In this document: one piece after another, positions 30,751-41,569 of the stretch
Position numbering within the stretch: the first letter of the stretch is position 1
Layout: every line of letters begins with the position of its first letter
NCBI GenBank assembly: GCA_003971905.1
Contig: RSEE01000098.1
Span: 186,001-227,569 of the forward strand
Length of the DNA: 41,569 bases
Reading direction: 5' to 3'
DNA from: Moniliella sp. 'wahieum'
Lineage: Eukaryota
The notes under the pieces: model-generated
What the model saw: only the letters and a program-made list of their open reading frames with translations
Database searches by the model: none
Told to the model about the DNA's origin: nothing
Translations under genes and position numbers: made by a program

Positions 30751-31311
30751 CGTTGAATCTCCCTCCCCACTTCCCGTTCTCATCTCCCTGTGGTCTCATA
30801 TCTCCCGTCCGCGGGGCACGGGTGAGGTAGGACATGGACATGTACATGTACACGTCTCTGTGCCAACCCTGGAGAAACAGAGCGACGGCAAGGTACTGAC
30901 CAGTATGGGCCTTTTGTCTCTCTTTGTACTATCTTTTTGTTCTGTTCTGTGTGGTTTTACTTGGTTGGTTTGTTGCGGACCACGTCGACCTGTAACCTAC
31001 AACCTACGATGTATGTCGTACGACGTACGACCTACAACTTACGACATACGACCGGTGACCTTGCGGGGCGGGGGGGGGGGGGCGAGCAGCTGTTGGACGA
31101 ACAATAGGGTGGACCGAGCGGTGGACCAAGCGCTGGACCAGTGGCTGGACCGAGCAGCATGTCCGTTCCCAGCCGGACTTGACCCACGACACGCATCACA
31201 CGCTCGACTGGGACCCCCAGAACCACAAGCACGATGACAAGGACCACCAGGACCCCAAGGACCCGAATCTGACGCCGAAGCAAACCGAGTCCCAGACACA
31301 ACCCCAGACCC

Positions 31312-31706
31312 TAGTCTTATATTGGCGTGTGATGAGTCCTGTCAAAACGCGGCTCAATTAGTACTGAGACAGGTATTTTAGCCCAAACTGGGACACCCCA
31401 CGAAAAGTCAGCCACCACAGTGTGATGGGGACCAAAATGTGGTGCCTGACGTTTGGTGATCTCTGACATTTCGGGTGGGGCTTAGTCCTGGAATGCGGTA
31501 TTCACGCTGTCACGCCTGGAATGTGACATGTGAGGAGGGCAAAATGCGGGGTCTGACGTTTGGTGAGCTCTGACATTCTTTGATGGCGTTCCTTGCGGAA
31601 ACGTAGCGGGCCCTGCCACGCTGCTTGCGCCGTGCCCGGTCCCGACTCTGGCCTGTGTGGCGCCTGGGCCAGCGCTCCGTGGGGGATCGGCAACGACGAT
31701 AGGGCC
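31312..31706 (+). mobile_element. Subtelomeric module X, copy 1 (395 bp, truncated)
   Basis: Matches 31879-32273 essentially base for base. Begins CC|TAGTCTTATATT and is cut at a CC where module Y begins. Confidence 0.7.
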
Positions 31707-31878
31707 TAGACATATGTTCATTGATACATCTGGTATGAGTGACCTAGACGTATGTTCAGTGATACATTTGGTACGGCTGATCGATGATATGACGGCCACA
31801 AATGCAATTTGACACTAGTGTCGATTTCTATTTGTTTCCAGCCTACAGTTGGTACGGATCCTATTTGTGGTCGAGGCC
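31707..31878 (+). repeat. Subtelomeric module Y (two TAGAC-headed units at 31707 and 31745)
   Basis: TAGACATATGTTCATTGATACATCTGGTATGAGTGACC is repeated at 36205-36242. TAGACGTATGTTCAGTGATACA is repeated at 36264. Confidence 0.75.
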
Positions 31879-34800
31879 TAGTCTTATATTGGCGTGTGAT
31901 GAGTCCTGTCAAAACGCGGCTCAATTAGTACTGAGACAGGTATTTTAGCCCAAACTGGGACACCCCACGAAAAGTCAGCCACCACAGTGTGATGGGGACC
32001 AAAATGTGGTGCCTGACGTTTGGTGATCTCTGACATTTCGGGTGGGGCTTAGTCCTGGAATGCGGTATTCACGCTGTCACGCCTGGAATGTGACATGTGA
32101 GGAGGGCAAAATGCGGGGTCTGACGTTTGGTGAGCTCTGACATTCTTTGATGGCGTTCCTTGCGGAAACGTAGCGGGCCCTGCCACGCTGCTTGCGCCGT
32201 GCCCGGTCCCGACTCTGGCCTGTGTGGCGCCTGGGCCAGCGCTCCGTGGGGGATCGGCAACGACGATAGGGCCATTCGCGACCAAGGTAATTGTTTCTTT
32301 CTGGTCGAGGGGCGGGTGACGGGCGTGCCGGCCCGGACCGTGGCTAGGTGCGCTCGGTGATGGGTCCTGGGCGTGCCGACTTGGGCCGTGGCTGGGTCCG
32401 CTTGGTGACAGGTCCTCGGCGGCTGGGGCCGTTGCTGGGTCCGCTTGGTGACTGGTCCTGCATTGGGCCGAAGAGCCGCTTGTCACAAGTGGTCAGGCCT
32501 GTCTTTACCTTGCATTCTGGGTCAATCCGCCAAGCGGGCCCTGCCACGCTGCTTGCGCCGTGCCCGGTCCCGACTTTGCTCTGTGTGGCGCCTGGGCCAG
32601 CGCTCCGTGGGGGATCGGCAACGACGATAGGGCCATTCGCGACCAAGGTAATTGTTTGCTTTCTGGTCGAGGGGCGGGTGACGGGGCGTGCCGGCCCGGA
32701 CCATGGCTAGGTGCGCTCGGTGATGGGTCTTGGCGTGCCGACTTGGGCCGTGGCTGGGTCCGCTTGGTGACAGGTCCTCGGCGGGGCGGCTGGGGCCGTT
32801 GCTGGGTCCGCTTGGTGACTGGTCCTGCATTGGGCCGAAGAGCCGCTTGTCACATGTGGCCCGTCCTGTCTCGATATCCTTGCGTTCTGGGCCAATCCGC
32901 CTCACATCTTGTTTCTGACGGCCACCACCCTGATACTTGTCTCTACTCCAGCCCTTCTTGGTTCGTCCTCAGGTCTCACCCCATCTCAAGGCGTTCGCCA
33001 TGCGCCATCTTCAATCACTTGTGCAGCTGCTAGTCTGTCTCTTCCACCTTGCCGTTAGGCCTTTCGGATTTGCGTCCCAGGGGCCGGTACCGAAAGCGTA
33101 GCATCTTTGGTTCTCGCACACCACCCGTTGAGCCCCTCGTGCTGCTTAACCTCCGTGCCGGGCTCTTCCCCTGAAGAGGCGAGCGCGGCAGCCAGTGCAT
33201 CCGCCGATGTTTGGTCTGTGATTCTCTCCCTCTGACTCTCATTGCCTGTGGCGCTGGCGTTTGGGCCAGGTGCTCACGACTTTGTTTTATCGCCCAGGTC
33301 GAAGGTGGTGCCGGGGCGCGTCGTGCCACTAGGTTGGAACAAGTGACTTGCTTATGTTTCGGCCCGGGTGGACACGGCCATCATTGCAACGACGGAGAAG
33401 GCCATTGGTTCTACGTACGAGACGCCACTGTGGATGACAGAAGAGGGTAGGGCTGGATTGTGCGTGGGGGACAGGGGGTTTGGCTCTACCTGGGGGGGTG
33501 ATGGATCATCAGACTTGCGCCTGAACTTTGTCTGACTCTGGTCCGGGCCTGGCCAGTGGACTCGCGCTGGCTCGGGCTGGGGTCCGAGATCAAGACCACT
33601 GATGTGTTGATTAGCTCGAGTGCGCACTGTGTTCCCCTGCCCTTTGCTTTTGCCATACACGCTCGGTGGTTCATGGGTGTATAGGAGCAGTGCAAGCGGC
33701 AGAGGCCCGGAAGGAGAGTGTGCTTCCCCAGCCAAGACGGAAACGCTGGCTGTTACTTTTCCCTCCGTTCGTATTGGCTCAGTGTCCACGTAATGGCCAT
33801 CATTGATTGGAACACTCTGAGTCAGACTAGGAAGGTGTGCTGCCACACTGGCATGAAAGATGTGTTGGGGATGGAGTGTGTGCATCGGAACGTGTTCCTG
33901 CTCAGAGCAGTGCTCACTGGCCTGAGCGTGAGCTTTGATGGCGTTCCTTGCGGAAACGTAGTGGGCCCTGCAACGCTGCTTGCGCCGTGTCTGGTCTCGA
34001 CTCTGGCATGTGTGGAGCCTGTGGCCCAGCGGTAAGTTGGGGAACGCCAATGATGATAGAGCCATTCGCGGCCAAGGTAAAGGTTTGCTTTCAGCTCGAG
34101 GGGCGCGTGACGCCGCGTGCCGGTTTGGGCCGTGGCTGGGTGCACTTGGTGATGGGTCCTGCATTGGACCAAAGAGCCGCTTGTCATAGTGGGGACTCAT
34201 GGTCTGCGCAACGCTGCCGGCGGAGAGCAGAGCTAGAGCGGGGTGCATCTGCGGTGTGTTCCGCGGCGGGCGAGACCGGGCAATGGGGCAGGGGCAACGA
34301 CGGTGGTGGTCAACAGCAGACACGGGGCGCGAGGACACAGGCCAAGCGGACGGCGGCGGGTCGGCGCAAAGGAATCATCCACCGCGCCGAGTCAGCGGTG
34401 AGGTGAGCGGTGAGCGTGTGGGTTGGTGATCGGTGATCGGTGTCGTGTCCCGGGGCCGTGCGCGGCGGTGGCGCTCGTGCCTGTTGGTCTGCCTGACCAC
34501 CATCGTCCCCCGGCATGCGCTCGGCCTGGTAGCGGGGTGGGCGCCGTACCTGAGCCTCCCCGCTGCCCGGCACCTTCCCGCACGGGGGACGCACCAGCCT
34601 GCATGGGCGCCAGCTGGCCTGGGGGTCTGCCCCAACCAGCAAGCCGGCTCTTTAACCCCACGCATCCTTGCCCTGTCCCCCCCCCGCCCCTCACTCCCAC
34701 CCCCCCCACCCATCGCACTGTGCTTCACGCCCACCCGCATCCCACCATGTCCACTTCTCCCATCCCCGCCCACAATCCCCGCGGCAATCCTGCCCATTCA

Positions 34801-36204
34801 CGCGCCCCGTCCCCGACGCCTTCGACGCCTCCTGCCCGTCCGGCCGCTACTCCGCCGTCTGCTCAGCCCGCTCGTGCTGGTTCGCAGTCTCCCCCGTCGG
34901 CCATCGCTCGTCCCACTTACGCTCAGGCTGCTCGGGCTGGTGCCCAGTCTCCCCCGCCGGGCATCGCTCGTGCAGCCCCTCCGGAGCCTGCTCCGGAGGG
35001 TGCGCAGTCTCCATCGCCTGCCTTGTCTCCCGTTGGCCCAGGTCAGCATGTCCATACTGGTCCGCCTAGCACGCCTGGTGGTTCCAGAGTAGCTTCTTTG
35101 GGATCCAAGCCAAACGCTCCCCAGGGTGACTCAGATCAGATTAAGGTGACGATAATCCTGTCTGAGCGGCTAGACCCAGTTGATATTACCATCGGTTTAA
35201 ATGAGTGCCGTAGTACGTGCCTGCCCCCCCTCCCCCTTCGTCCCCCTCTCGGTGCTAACTTCCACACACTTTTTCCAGAGTACTCGTGTCCTGGATGCAG
35301 TTACTCTCACCGTAAGCCGGACAAAATTCGGAACCATGCGGAAAGCTGCTTCGATCTCAAATCGTTCCTTGCTGCTAGCATTTACAATACTCCTTGGATC
35401 CACGTTAAACATGCCCTGGAAAAGGTCGACTTGGAGTATTGTGACCGCCTGCGCCTCCTCTTCTGCAAAGCGTGTCAATCGTATGTTTCTCCATCCCATT
35501 TGTTAAAGGCCACAAGGATCGCACGCCTCGGAAATCACCCCACCTTTACCGCGGAGCGGGCCAAAGAGGCCCGCTCCGTGTTGCGTGCCATGCCCGAAAA
35601 CATGCAACCACGCACACCTTCGGAGGATATGTTTCCTTTGCCTCTTACGGAGCCTGTGGATAGGGTGCCTGTCCGCGATAAGCACCTTGTGTGCAGGAAG
35701 TGTTTCCGGGTGTTGGGTTACCGGAGAATCAGGAACACCATCAACGTTCTTTCGGCCATCGATACGTCAGCGTGCGCATGACGACGCAAAATGTGGCATA
35801 CGGGATCAAGCGTGCCATCCTTAGGGCCGATGGTAGTTGCCTGGGTTTTTCTAACCCCGCCACGACGGTTGGGCTGGCGAGTCCTACGAACGATGCGGCC
35901 ACAAGGAACCAGCAGGAGGACAATGAGGAACAGAATGCTCTCGAACCCTTTGAAAATGGCGTTCGCGCGGTGGAGTCTACAAGCAGCGGCCGCGGGCGCG
36001 TCGGGGTGCGGGTACAGGTGCTTCGGAATCCGCTGAGGTGACCGCCAAAGAGGTTGATGCTCCACCGGGTCCCGGCCAGACTCCGCCCGCTCGTCCAGCA
36101 GCCCCCCGTCCGGCCCGTGTGGGTGAGCAGGACCTTCCGCGGGCAAACGACCTTGGACGGATCAGACGAGGGCCTCTGAGGTATTTTTTGAGGTCGAAGA
36201 AGCC
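31879..36204 (+). mobile_element. Subtelomeric module X, copy 2 (4.3 kb): terminus, about 361-bp internal tandem repeats and a truncated DUF3505-type gene
   Basis: Starts CC|TAGTCTTATATT. Repeat units at about 32172-32490 and 32533-32853, with a diverged unit at about 33933-34186. Ends at CC|TAGAC inside the ORF. Treating the whole span as one element is inference. Confidence 0.55.
34747..36204 (+). pseudogene. 5' fragment of a DUF3505/OrsD zinc-binding protein resembling the N-terminus of fungal telomere-linked RecQ helicases; intron 35213-35278; truncated
   Basis: Starts cccaccATG with a Pro-rich leader and has an in-frame 66-nt GTACGT..CTAAC..CAG intron. Then YSCPGC..NHAESC, LEYCDRLRLLFCKACQSYVSPSHL, PLPLTEPVDRVPV..LVCRKC and, after one indel, EHHQRSFGH. 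No helicase motifs appear before module Y interrupts. Family assigned by pattern recognition only. Confidence 0.6.
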
Positions 36205-36295
36205 TAGACATATGTTCATTGATACATCTGGTATGAGTGACCGATGAAACGATCACCGGAGCCTAGACGTATGTTCAGTGATACAGTTGGTATGG
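36205..36295 (+). repeat. Subtelomeric module Y, second occurrence
   Basis: Same two TAGAC-headed units as 31707-31780, with 21 extra bp between them. Confidence 0.75.
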
Positions 36296-36469
36296 CTTAC
36301 AAGGGCATGCCCACCCCACCCATTCAGGGTTGAGACAACTTTTGACTGGCAGACCGGGGGAGTGAGTTTTTTTGAATAGCCCCAGGCCGTAGCTTTCCAA
36401 CGATCCCACTCTCACTCCACTCCGATCTGACGCCTGGTCTTGCGTCGCGTGGGCACCCTAGCGTAGCCC

Positions 36470-37672
36470 TAGTCAGATATTCACGTGAAGGACTGCATAA
36501 CTCCGTCGATTTTCTCTATGAAAATGACGTTTTTCGTCTCAGAATTGCAGAGGTTGCAAAATGTCAGGCACCACAGTGTGTAAGTGCGAAAATGTGGCGC
36601 CTGACAGATGGTGACCTCTGACAGTTTGGGCGCGGGGCCTGTGTGCTGGAATGCAGAGTTTACGCTGGCCCGTCTGAAACGTGCGGAGGGCGAAGGGAGG
36701 TGCCTGACGGTTGGTGACCTCTGACAGTTTGGGTGCGGGGCCAGTGTCCTGTCGCGGTGCCAGCTCGAAAGGATCGGCATGGGGGCTACTTACTAATTAG
36801 CCCGCATGTGCCGCCCGCTAACACCGCATGTGCCATGTGACATGTGACACACGCTAACGCCGCATGCGGCAACGGATGTGACAGGTCCGGGGCGGGGAAT
36901 GTTCCGTGCGGGGTGGAGCCAGAGTGCAACCGCGGTGGCATGACCCGGGATGGGGCATTGCATGTACGTGTGAGGGTGGGTTACAATGGGTGTGTGACAT
37001 GCGACGCGCTGTGGACGCCGCGGTTTGGTGACGATAGTACGCCCGACAGGCGACCGCATCCACGTGCGTTACCGGGGAGCGTTGAATGTTGAACGCCGGG
37101 CTGGCCTGGAGCTGCAAAAGCGTGACGCGCAATGCTTGCAGCTGCTGCCAAGATGCCGCGTGCCGGAGCGGGGGGGGCGGCCTCCTGCGGAGGAGGACGC
37201 AGTGGCGCAGGGTGTGCGCTCAGGTACATCGTTGGCAGCGCGCTCCCGCACGTCCCTCAGGCCCAGCGCTCAGTCTGAGCTGCCAGTGCTGAACGCCCAG
37301 CGCCCAGGCCTCAGGCCTTCAACGTTCAGGCCTTCGGTCCAGCTCGGTTGGGATTCACTGCAAAAGTGCGGCCCTGCTGTACTGCCGGGTGGGCCTGGGG
37401 TGCAAATGCCAACTGTGGTTCGATGCATGCTGCAGATCAGGACAGTGCACACCAGTGCGCTGAGCTTGCCCTGAGCAAATATAGCCGGCCCTCCAACGCT
37501 GCTTGCGCCGTGTCCAGTCCCGACTCTGGCCTGTGGCCATCCGACCGCTGTCCACCGCTGTGCGCTGCCGGCGCAGCGCATCTGATGTTGGTGTGCGCAA
37601 ACCATTAATCCAGCGCCGCCACCGCCACCACCACCACCACCACCACCACCACTTTCACCACCACCACCACCC
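36470..37672 (+). mobile_element. Diverged X-family module (copy 3)
   Basis: Starts CC|TAGTCAGATATT. The block GTCAGGCACCACAGTGTG..AAAATGTGGCGCCTGAC..TGGTGACCTCTGACA sits 93 bp from the terminus, versus 95 bp in X. Its last about 180 bp match 37945-38107. Confidence 0.55.
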
Positions 37673-38107
37673 TAGTCTTATATTGGCGTGTGATGAGTCC
37701 TGTCAAAACGCGGCTCAATTAGTACTGAGACAGGTATTTTAGCACAAACTGGGACACCCCACGAAAAGTCAGCCACCACAGTGTGATGGGGACCAACATG
37801 TGGTGCCTGACGTTTGGTGATCTCTCACATTTCGGGTGGGGGCTGAGTCCTGGAATGCGGTATTCACGCCTGGAATGTGAGGAGGGCAAAATGAGCTCTG
37901 ACATTCTTTGATGGCGTTGGTTGCGCCAACGTAGCGGGCCCTGCCACGCTGCTTGCGCCGTGTCCAGTCCCAACTCTGGCCTGTGGCCATCCGACCGCTG
38001 TCCACCGCTGTGCGCGCTGCCGGCGCAGCGCATCTGATGTTGGTGTGCGCAAACCATTAATCCAGCGCCGCCACCGCCACCACCACTTTCACACACCACC
38101 ACCACCC
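37673..38107 (+). mobile_element. Subtelomeric module X, copy 4 (distal boundary unknown)
   Basis: The first about 190 bp are nearly identical to 31312 and 31879 onward, followed by internal deletions relative to those copies. Confidence 0.65.
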
Positions 38108-38459
38108 ATGTCACCATGCATGGCCGTCTCGTGGTGAGCATCGTCCATATCCGTGCTTCATTTGGCGCTAGCACACCTCTATGCGCGTTGCCCCTGACCG
38201 TGAGGCAGATGGAGGATCTGATGCATGCCTCCAACAGTGCTTGCTCACTGTTGGTAGCATGCCAATGTGAGTCAGAACGGATGAGAGACGGCTGAGATAT
38301 CGCCATTTTGGTCCCGCCGGCGTACGCCACCATCTCATCCCAGCATGCATCGATCCCAGCCGCTCCCGCTCAGGTGCACGCCTCATCCAAGCCTCCCGCT
38401 GCAGCGTACTCCCTCGCCTTCCACCAGGGCAGGCCTACATCGACTACCATCTGCATCTG

Positions 38460-38950
38460 TCCACCAGCTGAAGCGATGGTGCACAGCAGGTCCAAACACG
38501 GGCAGGTGGGTGTTGATGGCGCCGCCGCTCCACCAGTTGTCGTCGGATGCCAGAGATCGTCGCGCCCCATCGTGCACTACAAGCAGGGCTTCCAGGGGAG
38601 GTAAGGCGCTCCAGGATTGGTCCAGCATTGAGGTCAGAACACGCCCCAACATCTGATGTTAGCTTGATTCGGATGAAGGTCTATGTTGACGGCGCCGGCA
38701 CAGCACCAATCCTCATCAAACAATAGATTGCATACATGCCCATCTTGCTTCAGAAGCAGGGCTTCCATGGGAGGTCGGGGGCACGCAGATTGGGCCCGGA
38801 TTGGGGTCACACCACATGTGAACATCAGAGGTTAGGTCCAAACAGCGGATGGTCGATGTTGATGCTGCCGGCGTTCAACCAATTCTGGACGAATCAGAGA
38901 TCTGTCAACGGTGTAGCGTAGCCCAGAATCAAGGCTTTCAAGAATGATGA
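38460..38950 (-). pseudogene. Decayed reading frame with three about 58-aa repeats, unknown family
   Basis: Repeats at 173-bp spacing translate as LKALIL..NWLNAGSINIDHPLFGP, MEALLL..DWCCAGAVNIDLHP and LEALLV..NWWSGGAINTHLPVFGP. In-frame TGA stops are present. Confidence 0.45.
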
Positions 38951-40254
38951 TGCGCTTTTGATTCGGTCCAGGATTGAGGTTACAACCACATGCAATTACC
39001 TCAGGTGCGGTCCAGACGGCGCACGGTCCCAACAAACAGCGTCGGTGCCCCACCCATATGGGACGAGTCAGAGCACGAGTGGTGGCGTAGCGTGCCCCAG
39101 GTATCCTCTTTCAGACGCGCACGCGTGGGGCGCAAGACGATGCACCGCGATGGAGAACGGGCGTGTGGCGGTGGATGCGTTGGTGGTGGTGGCGGCTTGG
39201 TCGATTTGGTGGCGGCCGAGCCAATCTGACCGCGCAGGCTGCGCGTGCATCGGTGCAATTGCAAATGTTAATATTTTCAGCCCGCGGCGGATGAATGCAC
39301 GGGCCAGGCGACGGATCTGGTTGGTTTCTTACCACGCCCCCCCCCAACCCGGCTGGCTTTGCCCGCCCCCCAAGGTCTGTTGCCTCGTTTAGCCCCTCGT
39401 TCTGAGCCTCCTTTCCCCCATTCGGTGCCTCCCGCGCCTCATCTTCCACACACCGGCCCTCTACTACTGCGCTCTCGCCTCTGTGTCTTCTGTCCAGCTT
39501 CTGGGTCTCTGCAGGTACTGCCCGCCACCCCGGGGCTCTTTCCCACGCCCCCCTGCCTCCCGACCCGTCCCAGCGCCGCGCTCCCACCTCCCACGCACGC
39601 CCAGGCCATCCCCGCCATTGACTCGGCCACCACCGCCATTCATTCGGCCACCACCATCATTCCTTCGGCCATCGCCACCGTCGGGTCGGGCAAGCGGAAG
39701 CATGGGATGGTGCAGGGGATGGTGCATGCCTGCTGGCCTCAGTCTGGCGCGCTGGCCGTCCATGGTCACAGCCTCGCCTGCCCCCACCACTGCCGCGCTT
39801 GAGTTGGTTGTCTGGACGCTTGGCTTGGCCATCCGGATCCTCGTCTTGGCCATCTTCGTTCCAGGCTCGGCCATGCCAACGCATACCGTGCAGCGTGCCA
39901 TGCCGTCCCGTTTGGACGCTCTGCCGGCCCATGTGCACTCGCTTGGCGAACCTGCTGTCACCCTGCTTGGGATGCTCATCCCAACCGCCGTCTTGGCCAT
40001 GTGCAACCTGAGCGCATCGGTACGCATCCCATCCCATTCCATCCCATGCCACCCTGCCTCATTCTGACCCGCTCTTGCACCAGCGTTCTGCCACTCATCC
40101 CTCCGCTCTCCGCCATCATTGCCCCCATCTCAACGCTCGTCAGGGCCATGCTCAAGCTCGAGCAGCCCATGGGCCAGTACAACGTCGTGCTCTGTCTGTC
40201 TGTCGCGTCCACCCTTGCGCTCCCCCGACGGCCCCTGTTGTTTCCACCTTGTGC

Positions 40255-40830
40255 CAGGCATCTCCAAGCTTGCGCCGGCCACGTCCAAGCACGCGCCCAC
40301 CGCCTCGCAGCCTGTGCTTGCCATGTGCTTGTGCCCATCGTCTTTATCCTTGTGCCCGCCATGAGCAAGCATGTGCCACCGCTTCCAAGCCTGCACTCCG
40401 CATCTCCAAGCTTGTACCCGCCACCAAGCCGGTGCTCCCCATCCCCAAGCCTGTCGTCCCCACCAAGCCTGTGCTCGCCATCTTCAGCCTGTGCTCGGGA
40501 CCAAGCTTGGGCTCGCGATCAACCTGGTGCTCATCATCTCCGAGCCTGCGCTCTGTCCTCAAGCTTGTGCTCGCGAACAAGCCTGTGCTCATCATCTCCA
40601 AGCCTGCCCTCACCACCAAGCATGTGCTCATCATCTCCAAACCTGGGCTGCGCACCAAGCTTGTGCTCGTCATCCCCAAGCTTGTACTCGCCACCAACCT
40701 CTGCCCATCATCTCCAAGCCTGCGCCCTCCACCCACGCTCTCCATCCCCAAGCCTGTGCTCGTCATCTCCAAGCCTGCGCTCCCCATCAAGCCTCTGCTC
40801 GCCATCTCCACGCCTCTGCTCCCCGTCGTC
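40255..40830. repeat. Minisatellite of 18/21-bp units (CATCTCCAAGCCTGTGCTC-like)
   Basis: CCAAGC(C/T)TG recurs roughly every 18-21 bp across about 570 bp. Confidence 0.85.
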
Positions 40831-41045
40831 AACATCAAGCATGTATAGGAACATAGCAATGCATACCATCATTCAGCCTACCTCTCCATGCACTCTAGTA
40901 CATGCACCACAGAAGCATCCGAGCGCCTGTCATAGATGTTGAAGCGTACAATGACGACGACCATCGTGGGTCTTTGAGGCGAACGTAACGACTGTCCCCC
41001 TTTGTCAAGCGCATCATGGCATGCACTTGCATAGATGATCAACAG

Positions 41046-41449
41046 GTGTGGGTGGTGGGTCGGGTGGGTAGGGTTAGGGATGGGTGGGTGTAACTTTTGA
41101 ACGGTGCGTCGGATCGAAAAACGGAGGCCATATGCTGCAACGAGCGGACGATTTCGTAGCGAGCTATCGTCGAGGCCATCGGAGGGTGGGTGTTGTGGGT
41201 CGGGGTGGGTAGGGTTAGGGATGGGGGGTGTAACTTTTGAACGGTGGGTCGGATGGCGAATCTGAGGCCATATGCTGCATAGAGCGGACGATTTCGTAGC
41301 GAGCTATCGTCGAGGCCATCGGGGTGGGGTGGGTTGGGTCGGGTGGGTAGGGTTAGGGATGGGGGGGTGTAACTTTTGAACGGGTGGTCCAATCGAAAAA
41401 CGGAGGGCATATGCTGCATAGAGCGGACGATTTTATAGCGAGCTATCGC
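41046..41449 (+). repeat. Telomere-associated tandem repeat, 3 x about 140 bp, each unit containing TAGGGTTAGGG
   Basis: GTAACTTTTGAACGG occurs near 41090, 41230 and 41369, each preceded by GGGTGGGTAGGGTTAGGGATGGG. Confidence 0.9.
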
Positions 41450-41527
41450 CTCGGCATAACTCTCTCCCCTTCGGGTAGCTCGCTATCGCCTCGGCATAAC
41501 TCTCTCCCCTTCGGGTAGCTCGCTATC
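41442..41527 (+). repeat. 40-bp direct tandem duplication next to the telomere
   Basis: GCTATCGCCTCGGCATAACTCTCTCCCCTTCGGGTAGCTC occurs twice, plus a partial third copy. Confidence 0.9.
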
Positions 41528-41544
41528 TACCCTCGGCCCTCCCC

Positions 41545-41569
41545 TAGGGTTAGGGTAGGTTAGGGTTAG
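41545..41569 (+). repeat. Start of the telomeric (TTAGGG)n tract
   Basis: TAGGGTTAGGGTAGGTTAGGGTTAG at the very end of the sequence, with the G-rich strand pointing outward. Only about 4 units are visible. Confidence 0.8.

Follow-up and report, generated by a model that had tools for sequence, protein, structure and literature searches.

An array of modules at one chromosome end

The window analysed here, a stretch of 41,569 nucleotides from Moniliella sp. 'wahieum' (assembly GCA_003971905.1, contig RSEE01000098.1, positions 186,001 to 227,569), ends in a telomere, and the subject of this work is a stack of subtelomeric modules in front of that telomere, which share a single short terminus and one of which carries a DUF3505 (OrsD) gene. 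The plus strand closes at the right end of the window in TTAGGG repeats and is thus the G strand. The window, with a G+C content of 55–71%, contains ordinary eukaryotic genes and one tRNA gene from position 1 to about 31 kb; the repeat copies are confined to the final 10 kb, flanked by these genes and by the TTAGGG telomere. The shared terminus, CCTAGWCNNATRTT, has eight matches in the window, all eight on the plus strand (31310, 31705, 31743, 31877, 36203, 36262, 36468 and 37671), and none of 100 dinucleotide shuffles contains a match. The modules start at 31312, 31707, 31745, 31879, 36205, 36264, 36470 and 37673, each start being the same nucleotide of a common 12-nt end that stands directly after CC (8/8). 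In each copy the centromere-side end is fixed and the telomere-side end is truncated. This arrangement suggests that chromosome ends were rebuilt by sequence-defined copying or joining and not by ordinary recombination alone. The modules and the telomere tract are, from left to right:

31312..31706, plus strand: X-A, the first 395 nt of the X element; joins unique DNA at J1 and is truncated at J2
31707..31744, plus strand: 38-nt copy of Y1, equal to the initial 38 nt of the 59-nt Y1 at 36205
31745..31878, plus strand: Y2' (134 nt), with a Y-type start; departs from Y2 past about 36 nt
31879..36204, plus strand: X-B (4,326 nt), with head, tandem duplication and DUF3505 gene; ends at J5
36205..36263, plus strand: 59-nt copy of Y1
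36264..36469, plus strand: Y2 (206 nt)
36470..37672, plus strand: Z (1,203 nt), with a head about 75% like that of X; truncated at J8
37673..41544, plus strand: X-C, the outermost copy, 3.9 kb to the telomere; head 86% like that of X-A and X-B
41545..41569, plus strand: terminal telomere tract, TAGGGTTAGGG..., starting with TAG straight after CC

The joints between them are:

J1, 31311/12: unique DNA to X-A
J2, 31706/07: X-A to Y1
J3, 31744/45: Y1 to Y2'
J4, 31878/79: Y2' to X-B
J5, 36204/05: X-B to Y1
J6, 36263/64: Y1 to Y2
J7, 36469/70: Y2 to Z
J8, 37672/73: Z to X-C

Allowing one mismatch in the motif without its CC retrieves the same eight sites against 2.29 matches expected, and allowing two retrieves nine against 3.57 expected, the additional one (10676, minus strand) being at chance level; beyond this hit the window holds no reverse-strand copy of the motif that would provide an inverted second terminus. 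The invariant positions in the eight-way alignment are CCTAG, C, AT and TT together with three scattered positions. Between X and the otherwise unrelated Y, nine of the 12 terminal positions are invariant and the likeness collapses after about 14 nt. An invariant terminus with such an abrupt loss of likeness is what would be expected of a functional template end. Self-BLAST of the window showed that interrupted modules never resume and that no module copy lies in 1–31000. There is no target-site duplication (TSD) at the joints and no second end, none of the eight joints contains TTAGGG or CCCTAA and none contains poly(A); telomere-like 12-mers are found only at 41068, 41209, 41347 and 41544. 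An earlier annotation made from the letters alone (the sequence-only reading) had described eight starts with a common terminus on one strand, all after CC and facing the telomere, and interrupted sequences without resumption, TSD or second terminus; the shuffles, the TTAGGG on the plus strand at the window end, the self-BLAST and the mismatch-tolerant motif scan bear these descriptions out.

At three joints an uninterrupted copy of the upstream sequence can be compared with the broken one: GGGCC|ATT at 32273 with GGGCC|TAG at 31706, TGACC|GAT at 36242 with TGACC|TAG at 31744, and CACCC|ATG at 38107 with CACCC|TAG at 37672. These comparisons, taken over from the sequence-only reading, are correct to the base, but two of them carry less weight than they had been given. 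Loss of 3.9 kb between two GCC would turn the X-B|Y1 joint J5 into J2, and loss of 21 bp between two CC would turn the Y1|Y2 joint J6 into J3, so that two of the three breaks after CC are not independent proofs. The CC is also part of the uninterrupted recipient, as a 2-nt microhomology, at J8, and at J2 and J3 too if these are independent. A fourth comparison of this kind, Y1 against Y2', was dropped since its alignment is ambiguous. There are at least six independent joints (J1, J4, J5, J6, J7 and J8).

These derivations also belong to an explanation that dispenses with any special process, in which the array is an ordinary subtelomeric mosaic of paralogous blocks shuffled by break-induced replication, unequal exchange and microhomology deletions, and the terminus is an inherited block boundary. 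The order X, Y1, Y2 is present twice, and X-B contains internal tandem duplications with three copies of a head block, both of which would fit such shuffling. Tandem subtelomeric arrays with truncated copies are described to arise after telomere failure in Pyricularia in the excerpted text of one study (PMC8381367); the arrays in that excerpt are, however, bounded by interstitial telomere tracts, which are found at 0/8 joints here. Moreover, the same donor nucleotide is used at at least six joints whose upstream partners differ, and the likeness of X and Y is limited to the 12–14 terminal nt, contrary to common descent of whole blocks. The segment 31310–31706 is 100% identical to 31877–32273 (the start of X-A and that of X-B, 397 nt), and the left edge of this perfect duplication in the self-BLAST coincides exactly with the terminus, which is unexpected for a random duplication. 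We therefore consider a mosaic of this kind improbable.

The same duplication bears on the assembly, as repeats of 100% identity that lie 567 bp from each other, together with numerous short ones, could have led to a repeat-rich end mis-joined from the reads of several chromosome ends. Such mis-joins would be expected inside shared repeats and not at a 12-nt motif of otherwise unrelated sequences, the joints lie at the same nucleotide with CC in 8/8 cases, and the contig passes from single-copy genes into a proper telomere. An artefact of assembly is accordingly very improbable. Two more specific candidates were rejected on the structure of the joints: a telomere–telomere fusion would leave CCCTAA tracts, which are missing, and for a restriction-site ligation artefact the recipients lack the half-site.

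If the telomere joint is counted, nine joints in succession read CC|TAG. At the telomere joint (41543) TAG stands directly after CCCC, making the palindrome CCTAGG, and the chance of finding CC|TAG at this joint alone amounts to a few percent in a rough post hoc estimate. With nine successive joints, CCTAG flanks each module on both sides, which is automatic within an array. CCTAG is rare in the arm (1–31000), with four occurrences on the plus and nine on the minus strand where base composition predicts 34.5 for each. The plus strand of the subtelomere (last 10.5 kb) shows no such depletion, and nine of its 11 occurrences are joints. An extra CCTAG stands at 36457, 11 nt before J7 and the start of Z, and the 11 nt at 36459–36469 are loosely like the start of Y2 minus two bases; by this resemblance they may represent an abortive 11-nt Y-like start.

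A joint with a fixed sequence could also be produced at the DNA level, much as the sequence-only reading had proposed, by an element-encoded nickase or recombinase that cuts CC|TAG, with a 2-bp CC or a 5-bp CCTAG core and the RecQ-type helicase of the full-length element assisting. Either the strand starting with TAG would be transferred to the 3'-OH of CC, or TAG...CC units would be inserted into CC|TAG joints, the original telomere joint included. HUH elements (IS91, IS200/IS605, Helitrons) are characterised by a fixed short host sequence, the lack of a TSD and one-ended products whose length varies. The nine CCTAG joints including 41543 may be compared with the direct repeats of 4–6 bp given for Cryptons in the excerpted text of PMC3212892, and CCTAG is scarce in the rest of the window. 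Furthermore, the orientation of terminus and gene in X is like that of an autonomous DNA element. On the other hand, the targets never resume, which speaks against a classical Crypton-type insertion at the break points of X, Y1 and Z, pieces of 11–59 nt would be odd products of a recombinase, and the joints are without an inverted second binding arm. Taken together with the protein evidence described below, we judge an enzyme of this type to be the main rival of the explanation preferred here, though a rather unlikely source of the array.

Module families, the DUF3505 gene and the search for an enzyme

The modules belong to two unrelated families, X/Z and Y, where the sequence-only reading had distinguished three sequence types. 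X (31312, 31879, 37673) and Z (36470) are homologous, with 75–86% likeness over the first ~170–360 bp in the self-BLAST, and therefore form one superfamily; Y and X/Z have nothing in common past the terminus. The two Y1 starts are 100% identical across 41 nt. X-B contains an internal tandem duplication of about 361 bp (32172–32901) and a third, partial head block (33933–34161), and a distal block of Z (37482–37660) is 93% like X-C 37932–38116. A right end common to X-B and Y2' was considered and dropped: the similarity was reached in 28 of 2,000 shuffles, and other real windows score equally high.

The heads of X and Z share further structure, of which the most prominent element is:

31407..31450, no strand assigned: hairpin with a 13-bp stem, about 95 nt from the terminus; kept in the X copies and in Z (36563–36605)

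Behind the hairpin stands a CTGACnnnTGGTGAnCTCTGACA box in two copies, which has the form CTGAC...TGGTGA.CTCTGACA in the X and Z heads. Hairpin and repeated boxes would, by analogy with subterminal binding sites, suit the action of a nickase or recombinase. In minimum-energy folds of the minus sense the final ~15 nt are unpaired in four of the five module ends tested, which would suit priming at a template end, and in Y2' the terminal GG is paired to the 5' end. X and Z form no hairpin within ~40 nt of the terminus, and the Y folds are no better than those of shuffles.

The body of X-C has no protein-family match. Eight copies of a repeat with a 39-nt period (40386–40820) lie within long open frames of both strands, likewise without a family match. 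Towards the telomere, X-C contains three tandem repeats of ~140 bp (41045–41463), each with a telomere-like GGGTAGGGTTAGGG tract, and after them, just inside the telomere (41045–41527 region), a pair of 40-bp repeats with short inverted repeats. The repeats of 41045–41527 could be a record of repeated healing and re-extension, or variable-number tandem repeats as reported upstream of the Fusarium FoTeR elements.

Only one of the 23 long open reading frames (ORFs) between 31 and 41.5 kb belongs to a Pfam family:

34747..35781, plus strand: DUF3505/OrsD gene inside X-B, with a Pro/Ala-rich N-terminus and a zinc-finger-like domain

The match to OrsD/DUF3505 has an E-value of 4.2e-6 and 27.6 bits, against a cut-off of 26.6. 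The gene retains a 66-nt in-frame intron (35213–35278, GTACGT...CTAAC...CAG), and X-B stops 423 nt past its ORF. The form of the intron and the DUF3505 family would by themselves point to a filamentous ascomycete. Three 60-nt repeats (34845–35024) lie in the Pro/Ala-rich N-terminal coding part. A HMMER search with exon 2 (166 aa) against 1.84 billion representatives returned three proteins:

P0001, 110 aa, E 3.6e-10: matched by exon 2
P0002, 1,373 aa, E 4.5e-9: exon 2 matches its residues 17–162
P0003, E 2.8e-4: LRR protein, unrelated

P0002 contains a DEAD/ResIII match at 1114–1276 and matches RECQ5 and RecQ structures (E 1.2e-11). As the nearest long relative of the window's gene thus has a RecQ-type helicase behind the shared N-terminal domain, module X is probably a subtelomeric element of the telomere-linked helicase (TLH) type. 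No RecQ or helicase domain was found in the frames of 31312–41569 (stop-to-stop, at least 35 aa), and X-B holds only the N-terminal part. A second, decayed DUF3505-like stretch, recovered at E 7e-4 by tblastn when P0001 was the query, was observed in X-C (38638–38832, plus strand), where it lies inside a set of three ~190-bp repeats. Word-based protein searches returned no longer relatives of the DUF3505 part and, with P0002 740–1080, only P0002 itself among proteins of near length and none among shorter ones. In a language-model atlas, the middle of P0002 is closest to ascomycete 'hypothetical protein' clusters (0.95–0.96), and a 912-aa cluster bearing OrsD lies at 0.83; the architecture of DUF3505, ~900 residues and RecQ may be common in Ascomycota.

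The sequence-only reading had placed the enzyme behind the array in a full-length version of the DUF3505 protein. This is not established: computed tests gave no tyrosine-recombinase, HUH or reverse transcriptase (RT) domain, and the protein is related to the N-terminus of a RecQ-type helicase protein. The ~900 residues of P0002 that separate its DUF3505-like zinc finger from the helicase (~163–1110) carry no family assignment and would offer room for a nickase or recombinase, and the nearest named clusters in the atlas are Phage_integrase (0.84, 0.83), NDC10_II (0.82) and Integrase_2 (0.81), which fall below the threshold of 0.9 and are leads only. However, the window itself yielded no domain of a recombinase or nuclease, with neither a tyrosine recombinase nor a HUH domain among its frames, and P0002 is only 29% identical to the window gene across 149 residues. 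Boxes seen by eye in P0002 (~822–1043) had suggested a tyrosine recombinase, and every computed test failed to support this candidate. Searched to an E-value of 10, Pfam, PHROGs and NCBIfam showed no recombinase or integrase in P0002, with two weak Pfam matches to unrelated families, and phmmer searches of the PDB gave no recombinase. When aligned by hhalign to a profile built from six recombinases (XerD, XerC, FimB, FimE, lambda Int and Cre), the candidate reached a probability of 0.35%, hmmsearch --max gave -0.9 bits, no better than 500 shuffles, and pairwise Smith-Waterman comparisons with recombinases gave z of at most 1.4. A single-sequence AlphaFold2 model was unusable, with a predicted local distance difference test score of 38.4. 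A HUH Rep was also missing from P0002 at E up to 10, and its helicase is RecQ-like, not Pif1-like.

Searches beyond the window added little. Two candidates from a metagenome scan with the X/Z head box (L001, L002) have no BLAST similarity to the window and are chance hits, and an exact 27-mer of the X head is absent from genome_contigs and viral_contigs, collections without fungal genomes. A literature search with six terminal 12-mers gave nothing related, by title and abstract, among the matches listed; no paper was found that combines 'telomere-linked' helicase with 'tyrosine recombinase', and DUF3505 was not mentioned among the matches listed for Crypton, tyrosine recombinase, NDC10 and PF12013.

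The arm in front of the array (1 to ~31 kb) encodes an aspartyl protease, pieces of a Brr2-type helicase (Sec63, Helicase_PWI, DEAD), a RasGEF, a GMC oxidoreductase and a 3-hydroxyacyl-CoA dehydrogenase. Its last unique DNA contains a G run of ~17 nt (31067–31083), ~230 nt before the first joint. The 10-mer ATCTGACGCC occurs at 31267–31276 and at 36425–36434, exactly at -45 from J1 and J7, and is similar to TCTGACG, the core of the boxes in the X/Z heads; the flanks of J1 and J7 are otherwise unrelated. The DNA upstream of J1 was also considered as a homologue of some module, and the similarity was not significant.

Proposed copying from a fixed template end

Any explanation of the array must yield one fixed start in unrelated sequences, a 2-nt CC overlap, truncation on the telomere side only and a single orientation, and an easy explanation comes only from processes in which copying or joining sets out from a fixed point. 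The geometry, the 12-nt end, the CC, the distal truncation and the lack of TSD and resumption are observed; the template strand, the chemistry, the enzyme and the number of episodes are inferred. The explanation that we prefer, tentatively and with less than even confidence, is that the array arose through copy-choice synthesis, primed by CC on GG, at a chromosome end that was uncapped, with RNA templates as the simplest case. A chromosomal 3' end in CC would pair with the GG that terminates a linear minus-sense template (...AAYATNNGWCUAGG-3') and would be extended from this fixed template end toward the 5' end of the template. Synthesis would break off at a position that ends in CC, once 11 to 4,326 nt had been made, and would be re-primed on the end of the next template, until a copy gains an end that bears a telomere or can be healed. 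In its simplest form this would be target-primed reverse transcription with template jumps, using an RNA template and a RT supplied in trans; alternatively, a nicked DNA strand and a repair polymerase would give an identical product. Template jumps onto RNA 3' ends are known from the RTs of elements without long terminal repeats (non-LTR elements).

The lengths of the copies speak for this process. The retained lengths are 395, 38, 134, 4,326, 59, 206 and 1,203 nt, and the many short ones (38, 59, 134, 206 and 395 nt) favour repeated abortive copying in one or few repair episodes over eight rounds of capture and erosion, in which erosion would have to stop repeatedly within the first 38–395 nt, which is unlikely. 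Short pieces and a possible 11-nt stutter suggest abortive, poorly processive synthesis that re-initiates at the template 3' end. The proposal of the sequence-only reading that each event replaced everything distal with an element plus a telomere is thus one reading only, and the retained lengths fit repeated abortive copying better; insertion into CC|TAG joints already present, such as that of the telomere tract, may be another. Of its overall picture, the polar stack, the single defined end and the subtelomeric position stand, and successive capture and the enzyme are not supported. The retained intron of the DUF3505 gene suggests that a minus-sense RNA or DNA intermediate is compatible with the data and counts against a spliced plus-sense mRNA intermediate. 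The distal tandem repeats of X-C with their telomere-like tracts next to the telomere likewise suggest copy-choice synthesis, by analogy with the variable tandem repeats of FoTeRs.

Several points weigh against this explanation. RT, endonuclease, integrase and transposase are matched by none of the 88 minus-strand frames of 31312–41569 (eight weak unrelated matches below cut-off), and none of the 86 plus-strand frames matches RT or endonuclease, OrsD alone passing the cut-off. An Rfam search of 31000–41569 at E up to 10 gave no ribozyme that would define an RNA end (six weak unrelated hits). The gene of module X is plus-sense, so that an RNA template would have to be transcribed antisense over a long distance and to stop exactly at the terminus. 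The joints are without telomere repeats or poly(A), unlike those of MoTeR/FoTeR elements or HeT-A, and the CC|TAG at the telomere joint is more directly explained by site-specific insertion. The recurrence of X-Y1-Y2 hints at inherited composites and not at free template choice. Finally, all evidence comes from one chromosome end in one assembly. Read-through of a telomerase template was considered as a separate source of the terminus and rejected, the minus strand being unlike a telomerase template; the same Rfam search gave no telomerase RNA.

Comparison with known systems

The sequence-only reading held that no described system carries this signature, which was too strong, since MoTeR/FoTeR, Cnl1 and HeT-A/TART share the geometry, though without the CC|TAG joint. 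In Drosophila the 3' ends of the retroelements HeT-A, TART and TAHRE attach to receding chromosome ends without TSD. In template-switch chimeras of long interspersed nuclear elements (U6-L1, Magnaporthe MINE), the RT switches onto a second RNA exactly at its 3' end, and the products are multi-part with variable 5' truncation. The joints of both groups carry oligo(A), unlike the 2-nt CC/GG overlap found here.

Among fungal elements, the closest geometry is that of the telomere-targeted non-LTR retrotransposons MoTeR of Pyricularia and FoTeR of Fusarium and of the Cnl1 arrays of Cryptococcus, which are described, in the excerpts of the respective papers, as head-to-tail at chromosome ends with a fixed 3' end on the centromere side and distal truncation (PMC7367193, PMC12857005, bioRxiv 10.1101/2021.08.11.455996). 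In the MoTeR arrays of the first of these excerpts, the 5' ends lie nearest the chromosome end and copies are 5'-truncated (PMC7367193), and this geometry is reproduced here if the modules are read on the minus strand, with 8/8 in one orientation, fixed proximal and variable distal ends. The same excerpts describe non-autonomous partners that share only the 3' border, and tandem repeats with telomere-like tracts distally, variable tandem repeats being reported upstream of FoTeRs (PMC12857005). In contrast to the window, these elements encode a RT and sit in or between TTAGGG tracts; the window is without RT, has the joint CC|TAG and carries a plus-sense DUF3505 gene.

The gene content points to TLH repeats. 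DUF3505 and helicase domains are reported in the subtelomeric repeats of all 24 chromosome ends of Colletotrichum higginsianum (excerpt of PMC5576322) and also in Fusarium oxysporum subtelomeres (excerpt of bioRxiv 10.1101/2023.02.05.527183). As in the repeats of these two excerpts, a DUF3505 gene lies here in a repeat that divides unique DNA from the telomere, the constant orientation being that of the modules in this one array. Unlike the window, the repeats described there are single full-length copies or regions spread by homologous recombination, and the excerpts report no defined proximal end and no CC-joined truncated stack; furthermore, the helicase part is absent from the window.

Site-specific DNA elements form the third group. 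Helitrons have TC...CTRR termini, an A|T target and a hairpin ~10 nt from the 3' end. Here the plus-strand ends are TAG... and ...CC, the minus-strand end is CTAG followed by G in 8/8 cases, and no Rep was found; with Helitrons and IS91 the array has in common the lack of a TSD, the position after CC (8/8) and the lack of a second end. HUH elements in general resemble the array in having neither terminal inverted repeats nor TSD, a fixed host sequence at the joint and one-ended products of variable length. Cryptons, which are bounded by 4–6-bp direct repeats, are similarly without terminal inverted repeats and TSD in the excerpted text (PMC3212892), but no recombinase gene was found here and the interrupted targets do not resume.

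From the side of the TLH repeats, a bolder reading would take the DUF3505-RecQ repeats to be autonomous mobile elements of chromosome ends, with an origin at CC|TAGWCNNATRTT and a nuclease or recombinase region of their own, between zinc finger and helicase, that nicks or recombines there. We think this a long shot. If it were true, other ends would receive the element together with short non-autonomous relatives of it and a telomere, and a new class of eukaryotic mobile elements that build subtelomeres would be at hand.

How helicase-bearing subtelomeric repeats (fungal TLH and the yeast Y', a comparable subtelomeric helicase repeat) spread between chromosome ends is an old question, usually answered by homologous recombination. 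A 12-nt end in unrelated modules, with a fixed nucleotide and a CC overlap, would give a concrete handle on that spread. If the process is of the retro-type, telomere-retroelement biology extends to elements that can do without telomere repeats; if it is of the DNA-type, a mobile element of a new kind would be at work. In both cases the process has a bearing on the repair of lost telomeres in fungi and on the diversification of subtelomeric genes. The array thus has the geometry of MoTeR/FoTeR/Cnl1 and HeT-A and the gene content of TLH repeats, and it combines these with a CC|TAGWCNNATRTT joint without telomere repeats that matches none of these systems.

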